A stretch of 64,000 nt of DNA, taken from NCBI RefSeq assembly GCF_013315695.1, contig NZ_CP054353.1, one strand, 5' to 3'. Below, in pieces: positions 1 through 56,698 of the stretch. A program made the position numbers and the translations under genes. Numbering within the stretch: the stretch's first letter is position 1; every line of letters begins with the position of its first letter. Source of the DNA: Escherichia coli (lineage in GTDB: Bacteria > Pseudomonadota > Gammaproteobacteria > Enterobacterales > Enterobacteriaceae). A model generated the notes under the pieces. That model was not told the origin of the DNA. It saw nothing but the letters and a program-made list of their open reading frames with translations, and did no database searches.

Positions 1-2
1 CG

Positions 3-281
3 TTATTTTGTCATCTGCACGTATTTTTCTGCGCTCCTGATTGTTTTCAGGAAAAGAGCGAAGAGATTTACTGTGCGTCTTGAGTTCTTTTCATCCTGGT
101 TGATGGGAATTGAACCTCTGTCAGCCTGTCTTTTCACTGTGTTAACAGCTTGGTTAGTACGCTTTGCGTAATCTTTCAGGCTTTCTTCAAGTACTGGTAA
201 CCCATGCTCATCGCGGTAGGGATAGAACGCTGCTAAACGCTCAAAGTCTGCCTGTTCGTGTGTGTTCAGGACTTTTGCCAT
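3..281 (-). CDS. Phage early-region protein in the Cox/Apl position of a P2-type immunity region; 3' end runs off the window edge
   Basis: ORF starts at 281 and runs leftward to the window edge without a stop; transcribed divergently from the C-like repressor gene, as cox is in P2. No direct sequence resemblance to P2 Cox recognised. Confidence 0.4.
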   Translation of the reverse strand: MAKVLNTHEQADFERLAAFYPYRDEHGLPVLEESLKDYAKRTNQAVNTVKRQADRGSIPINQDEKNSRRTVNLFALFLKTIRSAEKYVQMTK

Positions 282-377
282 GTGTGATAACCTGCGCTAT
301 CTGTGGTTGTTTGTGATCTGGTGTACTTATAAGTACACCTTGTGCGCAAGCTTAGTGTACTTATAGGAACACTGTCA
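282..377. promoter_or_regulatory. Putative P2-type immunity switch region with candidate operator repeats
   Basis: 96-bp divergent intergenic region; perfect palindrome GTGTACTTATAAGTACAC at 321-338 and a second copy of GTGTACTTATA at 355-365, about 34 bp apart start to start. Confidence 0.4.
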
Positions 378-686
378 ATGCTTATCGGTGAAAAAATTAG
401 AGTGATTCGTGAATCAGAGGATTTAACGCGCGAAGAATTTTGCGGCCTGATTGATGTGCCTATCGGCACTTTGCGTCGTTATGAAACGGGGCGGATTGAA
501 AACATAGGGGGCGAAGTGCTTATCAAGATTGTTAATCACCCTCGCTTTTTTAAGTACATGAATTGGCTTATGACGGGAAAAACAAATGAGGCTGCTGGGC
601 AGATCAGTCCGTCTCTCTCCCCTGATGGGCCAAAAAGCACATCGCCTTCTCAAAAACCCCGCAAGACTGGCACACAGCCCGGCTAA
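378..686 (+). CDS. P2 C-like immunity repressor (small HTH protein)
   Basis: About 102 aa from ATG 378. C-terminal half (FFKYMNWLMTGKTNEAAGQISPSL...SPSQKPRKTG) resembles the recalled P2 C repressor tail (FTKYTLWFMTNQIAPESGQIAPAL...SGQKTG); N-terminus has an HTH-like segment. Lies immediately upstream of int on the same strand, as in P2. Confidence 0.75.
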   Translation: MLIGEKIRVIRESEDLTREEFCGLIDVPIGTLRRYETGRIENIGGEVLIKIVNHPRFFKYMNWLMTGKTNEAAGQISPSLSPDGPKSTSPSQKPRKTGTQPG

Positions 687-735
687 TCATGGAGCGCTGG
701 GGGCATGGTGGTCTTGTAACGCTGGGGTTTCACGA

Positions 736-1710
736 ATGAGCATAAAATCAATTCCGGGAGGATATCTTCTTGACATGCGCCCGGAGGGGCGTAAAGGCAA
801 ACGCATTCGTAAAAAATTTAAAACGAAATCGGATGCAGTTTTATATGAGCGGTGGGTGCTGGCGCAACAGCATAACAATGAGTGGAAAGGAAACTCCATT
901 GATCGCCGTCCGCTGTCAGTGCTTATTGACTTGTGGTGGAAATACCACGGTCAGCTAATGAAGTCAGGGCATAACACGCGCCTTAAATTGCTGCGCTTGA
1001 GTGAGGCAATGGATGACCCGTGCGTGCATAAACTTAATACAACGATGCTCACCGAGCTACGTGTGTCCAGGATAGAGCAGGGGATACAGCCCAGCACCAT
1101 AAATCGAGAGATTGGGGCGTTAAGCGCGATGTTTACCGCACTCATCTCATCCGGCCATTTTCTTAACGATAACCCCGTTCAAGGCCTTAAAGGAATGAAG
1201 GTTAACGAGCGCGAAATGGGATATCTGAGTAAGTCTGAATGTGTTCAGTTGCTGGATGCACTGGCTGAAAATCCCGATGAACGGCTGGCTGTCGAAATCC
1301 TTCTGTCGACCGGGGCGCGATGGGGCGAGGTAGCGGCACTGGAGCAGCGCCGTGTTCTTCATTGTCGAATCACTTTTTCAAAAACGAAGAACAGCAAAAA
1401 CCGTACCGTTCCTATTTCTGAAAGCCTGTTTGAAAAGATCAAAAAACGGGGCGGGAAACTGGTGTTTCCGACGCTGGATTATCCATTGGTTCGCGATGTC
1501 ATCAAAACGGTCGCACCTGATGTTCCTGACGGCCAGGCTGTTCATGCGCTGCGCCACACCTTCGCCAGTCATTTCATGATGAACGGCGGCAATATTCTGA
1601 CGCTCCAGAAAATTCTGGGGCACGCAAAGATTCAGACAACGATGATTTATGCCCATCTTGCGCCGGATTACTTGCAGGATGCGGTGAGATTTAATCCTAT
1701 TGCTGGGTAA
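736..1710 (+). CDS. int: P2-family tyrosine integrase
   Basis: 324 aa from ATG 736 (MSIKSIPGGYLLDMRPEGRKGKRIRKKF...). Shares extended motifs with the recalled P2 Int (NDPC, GIxPSxINR, LSTGARWGEA, HALRH-FA-HFM-NGG-I-TLQ-ILGH, YAH-APEYLQDA). The 586 start in the ORF track overlaps the repressor gene and is rejected. Confidence 0.9.
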   Translation: MSIKSIPGGYLLDMRPEGRKGKRIRKKFKTKSDAVLYERWVLAQQHNNEWKGNSIDRRPLSVLIDLWWKYHGQLMKSGHNTRLKLLRLSEAMDDPCVHKLNTTMLTELRVSRIEQGIQPSTINREIGALSAMFTALISSGHFLNDNPVQGLKGMKVNEREMGYLSKSECVQLLDALAENPDERLAVEILLSTGARWGEVAALEQRRVLHCRITFSKTKNSKNRTVPISESLFEKIKKRGGKLVFPTLDYPLVRDVIKTVAPDVPDGQAVHALRHTFASHFMMNGGNILTLQKILGHAKIQTTMIYAHLAPDYLQDAVRFNPIAG

Positions 1711-1720
1711 GGAGGATGTT

Positions 1721-2116
1721 GTGGAAAAAACAGTTAATAGCGATTTGCATTTAGGTCAGTACTGGAGAATAGACATTGTCTGCGATCCAGAACTTCGAGA
1801 TGAGGTTGAGCAATATTTTTCTCGACACGATGTTGGTTTTAGCAAAATTGAAGTTTTTTCCGTCGAAAATCCATATAAACTTGCTCTGTTCTTTGATTTC
1901 GCGAAGAAGGGTGTGGAGGTTGCAAAAGCCATTATGGGACTCTTAGACCGAAATGATATTGAAATAACGATGTATCGTGCTACGGACAGTAGCCCGCAGT
2001 CTGTAAAAAGCATCAAATTGCGTAAGTCTGAAGACGTAGAGAAATGTAAAGATTTGCTTAGTACGTGTGTCGCAATTGGCGTTCAACGAAATAAGGAAAA
2101 AGAGGGGAGCGAATGA
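1721..2116 (+). CDS. Hypothetical prophage cargo protein, about 131 aa, acidic, no recognisable domain
   Basis: ORF in the track starts at TTG 1700; GTG 1721 is preceded by GGAGG (1711-1715) and is the likelier start. Lies between int stop and the host junction. Hand-counted GC of sampled lines is roughly 33-43 percent, against more than 50 percent in adjacent int. Confidence 0.5.
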   Translation: MEKTVNSDLHLGQYWRIDIVCDPELRDEVEQYFSRHDVGFSKIEVFSVENPYKLALFFDFAKKGVEVAKAIMGLLDRNDIEITMYRATDSSPQSVKSIKLRKSEDVEKCKDLLSTCVAIGVQRNKEKEGSE

Positions 2117-2222
2117 TCCACAAAGTGACCACATCCCTGTTATTTGTTGTGGTTGGCTGTGTTTTTGTGTGTCTGTAAGTCTTTGATAATTATCTAACTT
2201 ATTGATTTTTGTTTGTGTTTAT

Positions 2223-4726: not shown

Positions 4727-5191
4727 ATGCGTTTCTGCCTTATTTTGATCACAGCACTGTTTCTGGCCGGGTGTAGCCACCATAAAGCACCGCCGCCAAA
4801 TGCCAGACTTTCTGATTCGATTACCGTTATTGCCGGTTTGAACGACCAGCTACAGAGCTGGCATGGCACGCCGTATCGTTATGGTGGCATGACGCGGCGC
4901 GGTGTGGACTGTTCGGGGTTTGTGGTTGTGACGATGCGCGATCGTTTCGATTTGCAGCTGCCCCGAGAAACCAAAGAACAAGCCTCTATCGGCACGCAAA
5001 TTGATAAAGACGAGTTGCTGCCTGGTGACCTGGTCTTTTTCAAAACGGGCTCCGGACAAAATGGTTTGCATGTAGGTATTTACGATACCAACAACCAATT
5101 TATCCACGCCTCTACCAGCAAGGGAGTGATGCGTTCCTCACTCGATAATGTTTATTGGCAGAAAAATTTCTGGCAGGCGAGACGAATCTAG
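4727..5191 (+). CDS. nlpC: NlpC/P60-family lipoprotein
   Basis: 154 aa, lipobox LAGC, Cys-containing NlpC/P60 core (GVDCSGF). Confidence 0.9.
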   Translation: MRFCLILITALFLAGCSHHKAPPPNARLSDSITVIAGLNDQLQSWHGTPYRYGGMTRRGVDCSGFVVVTMRDRFDLQLPRETKEQASIGTQIDKDELLPGDLVFFKTGSGQNGLHVGIYDTNNQFIHASTSKGVMRSSLDNVYWQKNFWQARRI

Positions 5192-5437: not shown

Positions 5438-6106
5438 ATGAAGATTTTTTTGGAGAATCTTTATCATTCTGATTGCTATTTCCTGCCGATAAGAGATAAC
5501 CAGCAAGACCTTGTCGGCGTTGAGTTAATTACCCATTTCTCCAGTGAAGATGGTACGGTTCGTATACCGACGAGTCGGGTTATAGCGCAACTTACCGAGG
5601 AGCAACATTGGCAATTATTTTCTGAGCAGTTGGAATTGCTAAAATCATGCCAACACTTTTTTATTCAACATAAACTCTTTGCCTGGCTTAATTTAACCCC
5701 ACAAGTGGCTACTTTATTATTAGACAGGGATAATTACGCGGGCGAACTATTAAAATATCCGTTTATTGAACTGTTGATTAATGAGAATTACCCGCATCTC
5801 GATGAAGGAAAAGATAATCGCGATCTTTTGTCCTTATCGCAAATGTATCCCCTTGTGTTAGGTAATTTGGGCGCAGGCAATAGCACAATGAGAGCGGTTT
5901 TTGATGGTCTTTTCACCCGCGTCATGCTGGATAAAAGTTTTATTCAGCAACAAATCACGCATCGCTCCTTCGAACCGTTTATTCGTGCGATCCAGGCGCA
6001 AATTTCCCCATGTTGCAATTGCATCATCGCGGGGGGCATTGATACGCCAGAAATAATGGCACAGATTACCCCCTTTGATTTCCATGCTCTCCAGGGATGC
6101 CTGTAG
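5438..6106 (+). CDS. ydiV: Anti-FlhDC factor YdiV (EAL-like), ending at an in-frame TAG that appears premature
   Basis: 222 aa MKIFLENLYHSDCYFLPIRD...; stop TAG at 6104-6106 is followed by 14 in-frame sense codons (PAVPVNQITTLVQR) and TAA. K-12 YdiV is recalled as 237 aa. Confidence 0.85.
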   Translation: MKIFLENLYHSDCYFLPIRDNQQDLVGVELITHFSSEDGTVRIPTSRVIAQLTEEQHWQLFSEQLELLKSCQHFFIQHKLFAWLNLTPQVATLLLDRDNYAGELLKYPFIELLINENYPHLDEGKDNRDLLSLSQMYPLVLGNLGAGNSTMRAVFDGLFTRVMLDKSFIQQQITHRSFEPFIRAIQAQISPCCNCIIAGGIDTPEIMAQITPFDFHALQGCL

Positions 6107-6174
6107 CCTGCCGTTCCTGTAAATCAGATAACGACGTTGGTTCAGCGATAACCCTCCTGTTTGCTGGTGTTTAA

Positions 6175-7650
<1,476 letters not shown>

Positions 7651-23748: not shown

Positions 23749-23803
23749 GGTGATGCTGCCAACTTACTGATTTAGTGTATGATGGTGTTTTTGAGGTGCT
23801 CCA

Positions 23804-24079
23804 GTGGCTTCTGTTTCTATCAGCTGTCCCTCCTGTTCAGCTACTGACGGGGTGGTGCGTAACGGCAAAAGCACCGCCGGACATCAGCGCTATCTCTGCT
23901 CTCACTGCCGTAAAACATGGCAACTGCAGTTCACTTACACCGCTTCTCAACCCGGTACGCACCAGAAAATCATTGATATGGCCATGAATGGCGTTGGATG
24001 CCGGGCAACAGCCCGCATTATGGGCGTTGGCCTCAACACGATTTTACGTCACTTAAAAAACTCAGGCCGCAGTCGGTAA
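23804..24079 (+). CDS. insA: IS1 InsA
   Basis: Protein identical to the copy at 17176-17451. Confidence 0.9.
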
Positions 24080-24501
24080 CCTCGCGCATACAGCCGGGCA
24101 GTGACGTCATCGTCTGCGCGGAAATGGACGAACAGTGGGGCTATGTCGGGGCTAAATCGCGCCAGCGCTGGCTGTTTTACGCGTATGACAGGCTCCGGAA
24201 GACGGTTGTTGCGCACGTATTCGGTGAACGCACTATGGCGACGCTGGGGCGTCTTATGAGCCTGCTGTCACCCTTTGACGTGGTGATATGGATGACGGAT
24301 GGCTGGCCGCTGTATGAATCCCGCCTGAAGGGAAAGCTGCACGTAATCAGCAAGCGATATACGCAGCGAATTGAGCGGCATAACCTGAATCTGAGGCAGC
24401 ACCTGGCACGGCTGGGACGGAAGTCGCTGTCGTTCTCAAAATCGGTGGAGCTGCATGACAAAGTCATCGGGCATTATCTGAACATAAAACACTATCAATA
24501 A
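23998..24501 (+). CDS. insB: IS1 InsB reading frame
   Basis: Protein identical to the copy at 17370-17873. Confidence 0.85.
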
Positions 24502-24516
24502 GTTGGAGTCATTACC

Positions 24517-56540: not shown

Positions 56541-56617
56541 TGGTGCGTCCGAGTGGACTCGAACCACCGACCCCCACCATGTCAAGGTGGTGCTCTAACC
56601 AACTGAGCTACGGACGC
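56541..56617 (-). tRNA. valV: tRNA-Val (anticodon GAC)
   Basis: Reverse complement reads GCGTCCGTAGCTCAGTTGGTTAGAGCACCACCTTGACATGGTGGGGGTCGGTGGTTCGAGTCCACTCGGACGCACCA, a cloverleaf with CCA end. Confidence 0.9.
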
Positions 56618-56621
56618 AGGA

Positions 56622-56698
56622 TGGTGCGTTCAATTGGACTCGAACCAACGACCCCCACCATGTCAAGGTGGTGCTCTAACCAACTGAGCTATGAACGC
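56622..56698 (-). tRNA. valW: tRNA-Val (anticodon GAC)
   Basis: Reverse complement reads GCGTTCATAGCTCAGTTGGTTAGAGCACCACCTTGACATGGTGGGGGTCGTTGGTTCGAGTCCAATTGAACGCACCA. Confidence 0.9.

Follow-up and report, generated by a model that had tools for sequence, protein, structure and literature searches.

In the stretch of Escherichia coli DNA analysed here (the window, 64,000 nt), the gene ydiV (rflP), encoding an anti-FlhD4C2 factor, is interrupted by an amber codon that a single G-to-A transition has made 15 residues ahead of the normal end of the reading frame. The stop is a genuine allele of a circulating clone; it is rare, confined to one near-clonal background and represents ordinary strain-level variation, that is, a young nonsense polymorphism in a gene often broken in E. 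coli. Conservation and a structural model suggest that this recent change at Trp223 probably gives a hypomorphic or null YdiV, since it removes Trp223-Pro224 and the final ordered helix of the protein.

The ydiV reading frame and its premature stop

According to the list of open reading frames and their translations, the truncated ydiV extends over positions 5438-6106 of the + strand and comprises 222 codons, beginning with the ATG at 5438, followed by TAG (6104-6106, + strand; context CTG TAG CCT). Beyond this stop the frame continues through 14 codons that are now untranslated, PAVPVNQITTLVQR (6107-6148, + strand), delimited by translation, an orthologue alignment and an AlphaFold2 model, and reaches the native TAA (6149-6151, + strand), identified in the sequence and in the annotation of LF82. 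An earlier note on this DNA, made from the letters alone, had described this succession of TAG, 14 in-frame codons and TAA, and the sequence and its translation confirm it; the span that it gave to the feature (6104-6157) starts at the right base and overshoots the TAA by 6 nt.

Pairwise comparison with LF82, AR_0077 and MSB1_4I located the change at position 6105, which is A in the window and G (TGG, Trp223) in all intact alleles. Base by base, this is the sole difference from LF82 ydiV in 720 nt. The intact allele of LF82 and AR_0077 encodes WP_001330300.1, a protein of 237 aa in which this TGG specifies Trp223. The TGG-to-TAG nonsense mutation proposed in the earlier note is thus borne out, as TGG is found in every close relative and the orthologues, 236-243 aa long, all have W223. 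The K-12 YdiV length of 237 aa, as given in the note, agrees with chain A of PDB 4ES4, ending in LQGCLWPAVPINQITTLVQR. The tail with Trp restored, which had been equated with that of K-12, is identical to the tail of WP_001330300.1 but shows I228V with respect to the K-12 tail WPAVPINQITTLVQR. Reference alleles do not normally end at this codon, and the other alleles that end at L222 are independent TAG or TGA mutations of TGG. Chance is not an issue, because the stop is a one-base departure from a gene matched by the 720-nt query in 5,419 of 5,426 complete RefSeq E. coli genomes, at 99.9% in the best case and at 100% in none.

The neighbours of ydiV are btuD, nlpC (4727-5191) and selO/ydiU (6214-7650), and the order btuD-nlpC-ydiV-selO is the same in the annotations of LF82, AR_0077 and MSB1_4I. 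The native TAA lies 45 nt 3' of the new stop and 62 nt 5' of the selO ATG (6214), leaving 107 nt between the new TAG and this ATG. With no more than 45 nt from the new stop to the native one, a polar effect on selO would be unlikely or negligible. The idea that 6104-6157 overlaps an RNA element or a terminator was also dropped: in the Rfam E-value scan all hits to this segment were eukaryotic families (snoRNA, lncRNA) below threshold, and no + strand terminator was predicted there.

Relationship to known YdiV proteins

Judged by its position in the nlpC-selO interval, its identity (1 nt in 720 from LF82 ydiV) and the interface residues of its product, the window gene is the orthologue of the anti-FlhD4C2 factor, and its product matches PDB 4ES4_A with a phmmer E-value of 7e-157. 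The K-12 counterpart YdiV/RflP (CdgR; PDB 3TLQ, 4ES4), likewise an anti-FlhD4C2 factor, is the same gene in the same btuD-nlpC-ydiV-selO locus; it shares with the window copy the degenerate EAL fold and the FlhD-contact residues, and differs from the window protein with W223 restored at 9 of 237 positions. The window allele is of the D24/D96/D122/D129 type, common to LF82 and AR_0077, and not of the K-12 form. Whereas the complete protein has 237 aa, with the L-W-P motif and the C-terminal helix, the window product has 222 aa and lacks residues 223-237, which contain the W-P motif and the final helix.

Two FlhD-binding proteins of Salmonella, YdiV (STM1344) and the paralogous STM1697 (PDB 5HXG), resemble E. 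coli YdiV in being stand-alone EAL-like proteins devoid of catalytic activity. STM1344 is ~52% identical to the window YdiV, with homology running to the C-terminus and including L-W-P. Unlike the window copy, both Salmonella proteins are full-length and expressed well, and their part in the nutritional and intracellular control of flagella is documented; the activity of E. coli YdiV, in contrast to that of Salmonella, is strain-dependent.

NCBI already has an entry for precisely this truncated protein, annotated as if intact: WP_174183231.1/QKM91144.1, "anti-FlhDC factor [Escherichia coli]" (222 aa), is identical to the window product from end to end. Its sequence is found on a 5.17-Mb NCBI contig as well as in Logan and ENA assemblies, and the record, unlike the reading given here, carries no truncation flag. 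With respect to pseudogene status, a disrupting mutation is observed in the window, conservation and structure suggest a loss of function, and the NCBI annotation treats the product as intact.

Occurrence and age of the TAG allele

Twenty-two contigs of Logan, ENA and NCBI, which come from different runs and centres, encode precisely this 222-aa product, with sources including Logan ERR8574652, SRR25445764, SRR8428005, ERR12454647 and SRR15832845 and ENA ERZ1748944 and ERZ19666002. The NCBI accessions WP_174183231.1, QKM91144.1, HAH6023185.1 and MEG9612687.1 correspond to the same product and are named "anti-FlhDC factor". In all seven contigs that were fetched the TAG is present in the DNA, and the flanks are identical to the window in six of these loci, the other (L008) having 1 mismatch in 1,447 bases. 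The possibility of an artefact of sequencing or assembly, with TGG in the true genome, came from the stop being a single-base difference common to no complete RefSeq genome (of 5,280 searched with a 71-nt query that has the TAG in its middle, none matched exactly). This reading was ruled out and has a vanishingly small probability, because 22 independent contigs from different runs and centres, with several NCBI accessions, encode an identical product; these also dispose of the concern raised in the earlier note that resequencing would be needed.

Compared with MSB1_4I, the nearest complete genome, which comes from a human rectal swab in Australia, positions 2223-64000 of the window differ by three SNPs (6105, 16569 and 58422) and one IS1 insertion (17121-17888). 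Every relative has G at 6105, which indicates that A is the derived and recent state; the view of the earlier note that the mutation is recent is supported by its being one of only three SNPs in ~61 kb. The other two SNPs both change amino acids, the window having A154 in an SDR-family oxidoreductase where MSB1_4I has S, and T419 in mdtK where MSB1_4I has A.

What the truncation removes and keeps

Conservation was assessed on an alignment of 18 sequences, 17 of them full-length, reaching down to 41% identity. The orthologues, from Citrobacter, Salmonella, Intestinirhabdus, Yokenella, E. fergusonii and Buttiauxella, are full-length proteins of 236-243 aa; W223 and P224 are present in 17/17 full-length orthologues, and L222 is nearly invariant. 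In an AlphaFold2 model built on the same alignment (mean pLDDT 91, pTM 0.87), the barrel ends with a strand at residues 217-219; the chain then continues as an ordered loop, which contains W223-P224, forms a bridge at 226-227 and closes with a helix at 228-234. The pLDDT of this part is ~85-94, so that residues 223-237 are predicted to be ordered. The crystal structure of YdiV with FlhD, obtained after limited digestion with trypsin, has a chain built as far as residue 233 (PMC3510510).

The Pfam EAL domain (PF00563) matches residues 13-222 of the window product with an E-value of 8.7e-8, corresponding to positions 15-232 of the 236 in the model, and the product thereby falls within the degenerate, non-catalytic subclass of this family. 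The weak score is in keeping with the catalytic residues that YdiV is known to have lost (PMC3510510). As the match ends at residue 222, the stop coincides with the end of the domain and cuts into its conserved closing motif. The FlhD interface is formed by alpha6-alpha8, with F155, F168, H175, E179, F181, R183, A184 and Q188 (PMC3510510). A residue check against this interface found all eight contact residues in the window product, with codons 155-192, encoding the FlhD-contact helices (5900-6013, + strand), unchanged.

Recurrent disruption of ydiV in E. coli

Proteins ending at L222 also occur on three other ydiV backgrounds: by TGA at codon 223 of the K-12-type allele (L012, L013), by TAG (L016) and TGA (L017) on a second background, and by TAG (L019) on a third. 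Counting the window lineage, stops at codon 223 have at least five independent origins on four backgrounds. Three contigs that simply end at codon 223 (L015, L018, L020) were left out of this count as contig-edge calls. These are short Logan or ENA contigs from other samples, all ending within a base or two of the codon; such ends may represent a break in the assembly graph at a within-sample polymorphism, inflating the counts of "222-aa" proteins.

As a control, the assembly collection was queried for K-12-type proteins cut short at ten further codons that a single transition turns into a stop (W58, W83, Q135, Q171, Q188, Q209, Q219, Q230, Q236 and R237). All ten control truncations are present in it, on 1-614 contigs each, some of which may be contig-edge calls, compared with 36 contigs for K-12-type W223*. 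Since the control nonsense truncations are all present too, codon 223 is not special, and the idea of a hotspot or of selection at this codon was dropped. The commonest control form, W83* of the K-12-type protein (P0128, 82 aa), occurs on 614 contigs, complete genomes among them (for example PCN061_1748); this number is far above that of any codon-223 stop, and therefore at least one sizeable E. coli lineage is without most of YdiV. By comparison, stops at codon 223 were found in none of ~5,400 complete RefSeq genomes on the three local backgrounds tested, which indicates that these alleles stay rare.

Nonsense mutations, with Q219* also among the natural disrupted alleles, are accompanied by other kinds of disruption. 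A run of six G residues (G6, 6031-6036, codons 198-200) is intact in the window; cluster P0025 (206 aa, 463 member sequences) ends in a frameshifted peptide, GGALIRQK, exactly at this run, which suggests that it is a slippage hotspot. In another cluster (P0034, 242 members) ydiV carries an insertion after F178, and the read-through peptide is what we take to be the translated right end of IS1. Several further frameshifts and in-frame deletions were found among the ydiV variants. Disrupted ydiV alleles of E. coli and Shigella thus concern the same gene and the same class of event as the window allele, and some end at L222 too, but their mutational origins and backgrounds differ, the window allele being a TGG-to-TAG change on the LF82-type allele. 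Loss of ydiV appears frequent, tolerated and non-spreading, a pattern compatible with weak or conditional selection on the gene.

Flagellar genes of the lineage

In the annotation of MSB1_4I, flhDC, motAB and cheAWRBYZ are intact and tap is a remnant. Its flhB is annotated as a pseudogene with an internal stop (MSB1_4I chromosome 3002931-3004079, - strand; L022:432-1580); the stop replaces Trp345 of 382 and leaves a 344-aa product. With entries in 1,099 blocks of the assembly collection, this truncated, 344-aa FlhB marks a large E. coli lineage. Given their near-clonality with MSB1_4I, the strains with the TAG in ydiV may share the flhB stop. A search for literature on this stop in the MSB1_4I-like lineage found nothing relevant. 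In Salmonella, FlhB proteins truncated at the C-terminus retain the export function and act as fliK suppressors. One may speculate that, if flagellar assembly were impaired in the lineage, the decay of ydiV could reflect relaxed selection, and that, if assembly were unimpaired, loss of ydiV might raise flagellar expression.

Proposed consequence for FlhD4C2 control and alternative explanations

YdiV binds FlhD and blocks the binding of FlhD4C2 to DNA, and the Salmonella protein passes FlhD4C2 to ClpXP (PMC3510510, PMC7157525). Deletion of ydiV/rflP derepresses flagellar genes and motility in the ST131 strain EC958 (PMC5425062), and a ydiV knock-out derepresses motility in the pathogenic isolate Z36, while in K-12 laboratory strains ydiV is silent owing to poor translation (PMC7157525). 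Against this background, a recent, lineage-specific G-to-A change at 6105, arising in a strain almost identical to MSB1_4I, turned Trp223 (TGG) into an amber codon, such that translation ends 15 residues early and produces YdiV(1-222). This product keeps the degenerate EAL barrel and the FlhD-binding helices and is deprived of the Trp223-Pro224 motif and the ordered C-terminal helix. As a conserved and ordered element is taken from a TIM-like barrel, the most plausible outcome would be a less stable or inactive anti-FlhD4C2 factor. Sequestration of FlhD4C2 and its targeting to ClpXP would then be weaker, and class II/III flagellar genes, and presumably motility with them, would be less repressed wherever YdiV is normally made. 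At the population level, the allele is one of many individually rare ydiV-disrupting alleles, with no sign of codon 223 being specially targeted. A literature search on C-terminally truncated YdiV or natural ydiV pseudogenes found nothing relevant.

The product might nevertheless fold and still bind FlhD, because the interface is intact and the Pfam EAL profile is matched almost to its end. On this ground the stop could be a neutral polymorphism, with YdiV(1-222) working about as the wild type and the tail being dispensable in E. coli. The retention of alpha6-alpha8 with the eight contact residues and the end of the EAL match at residue 222 are in agreement with it, as are the persistence of the allele in at least 22 assemblies and the circulation of other near-terminal truncations (R237*, Q236*, Q230*). 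Such neutrality is nonetheless rather unlikely in view of the strict conservation of W223 and P224 down to 41% identity and of a length of 236-243 aa, and of the order of the tail in both the AlphaFold2 model and the crystal complex; the absence of codon-223 stops from ~5,400 complete genomes (three backgrounds) also argues against it, being what is expected of alleles that do not spread. Even for a hypomorphic or null protein, the phenotype could be nil, because YdiV is barely translated in K-12-type strains (PMC7157525), and the state of ydiV may be irrelevant to motility because the flhB stop of the relative may already blunt flagellar assembly.

The removal of an anti-FlhDC factor could instead have been selected for more flagellar expression, for example offsetting the truncated FlhB or favouring motility in the host. 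Hypermotility upon ydiV inactivation in ExPEC backgrounds, the repeated independent disruption of ydiV across E. coli and the flhB stop at codon 345 of 382 in a near-clonal relative, in a form of FlhB that is widespread, would be in line with such an adaptive loss. We consider it improbable, since the tested transition-accessible nonsense codons were hit as well (10/10), so that the recurrence is what would be expected from very deep sampling of tolerated gene loss. Furthermore, the allele is rare and limited to one near-clonal background, the flhB stop is seen in MSB1_4I and presumed in the TAG-carrying strains, and all three SNPs relative to MSB1_4I change proteins, the usual picture of recent mutations not yet purged. 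Somewhat fainter still is the likelihood that YdiV(1-222) is a natural separation-of-function or compensatory allele. In the former case, binding to FlhD would be kept and the hand-over of FlhD4C2 to ClpXP, or the SlyD/Fur-related role in iron uptake, would be lost; in the latter, loss of YdiV would have been selected to boost flagellar expression in a lineage with a C-terminally truncated FlhB.

Restoration of the full-length protein, either by an amber suppressor tRNA encoded elsewhere or by leaky termination at UAG-C, is very improbable. Neither the 14 codons after the stop nor the native TAA is damaged, as would be seen under read-through, but an intact tail is equally explained by a young mutation and is to be expected from recency alone, given three SNPs in 61 kb. 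The inspection of tRNA genes, which covered 64 kb of the genome and thus leaves room for a suppressor elsewhere, found no suppressor in the window, where the only tRNA genes are two ordinary tandem tRNA-Val(GAC) genes at the valV-valW position (56541-56698, - strand). Natural isolates rarely carry amber suppressors, which are laboratory alleles, and basal read-through of UAG amounts to about a percent or less. Of these possibilities, the reduction or loss of YdiV function through removal of the C-terminal tail is the one we favour.

Significance

Since ydiV disruptions are commonplace in E. coli, the observation in itself has little wider weight. As the 222-aa product is called an intact "anti-FlhDC factor", comparisons of motility regulation between strains could miss C-terminal truncations of this kind. 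The repeated natural breakage of ydiV by nonsense mutation, frameshift at the G run and IS1 fits with reports of a YdiV that is active or silent depending on the strain, and could help to explain differences in flagellar expression between strains. The TAG allele also provides a natural test of the contribution of the conserved C-terminal W-P motif and helix to the stability and function of YdiV.

Other features of the window

The IS1 copy that distinguishes the window from MSB1_4I (768 bp, 17121-17888) is flanked by a 9-bp direct repeat, GCGCATGAA, at 17112-17120 and 17889-17897, and interrupts fadK, encoding a medium-chain fatty-acid--CoA ligase. Because it is absent from the near-identical MSB1_4I, this insertion is, like the ydiV mutation, a recent event. 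A second IS1 copy (23749-24516), 99.7% identical to the first and common to MSB1_4I, adjoins remnants annotated in that genome as partial cupin-domain and partial HTH genes. The relatives contain ~38-39 places matching IS1 per genome, which suggests that the lineage is IS1-rich. Such a number of copies also calls to mind a Shigella/EIEC-like origin; the nearest records are all labelled E. coli.

The first 2,222 positions of the window (1-2222), between ihfA and btuC, are the terminal part of a P2-like prophage or integrative element, with a Cox-like gene (3-281, - strand), a CI-type repressor (342-686), a tyrosine integrase (586-1710; phrog_1, E=6e-73) and a further gene of the element with no assigned function (1700-2116). 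The element is absent from this site in MSB1_4I and LF82 and is covered in 2D, MINF_1A and 100181.
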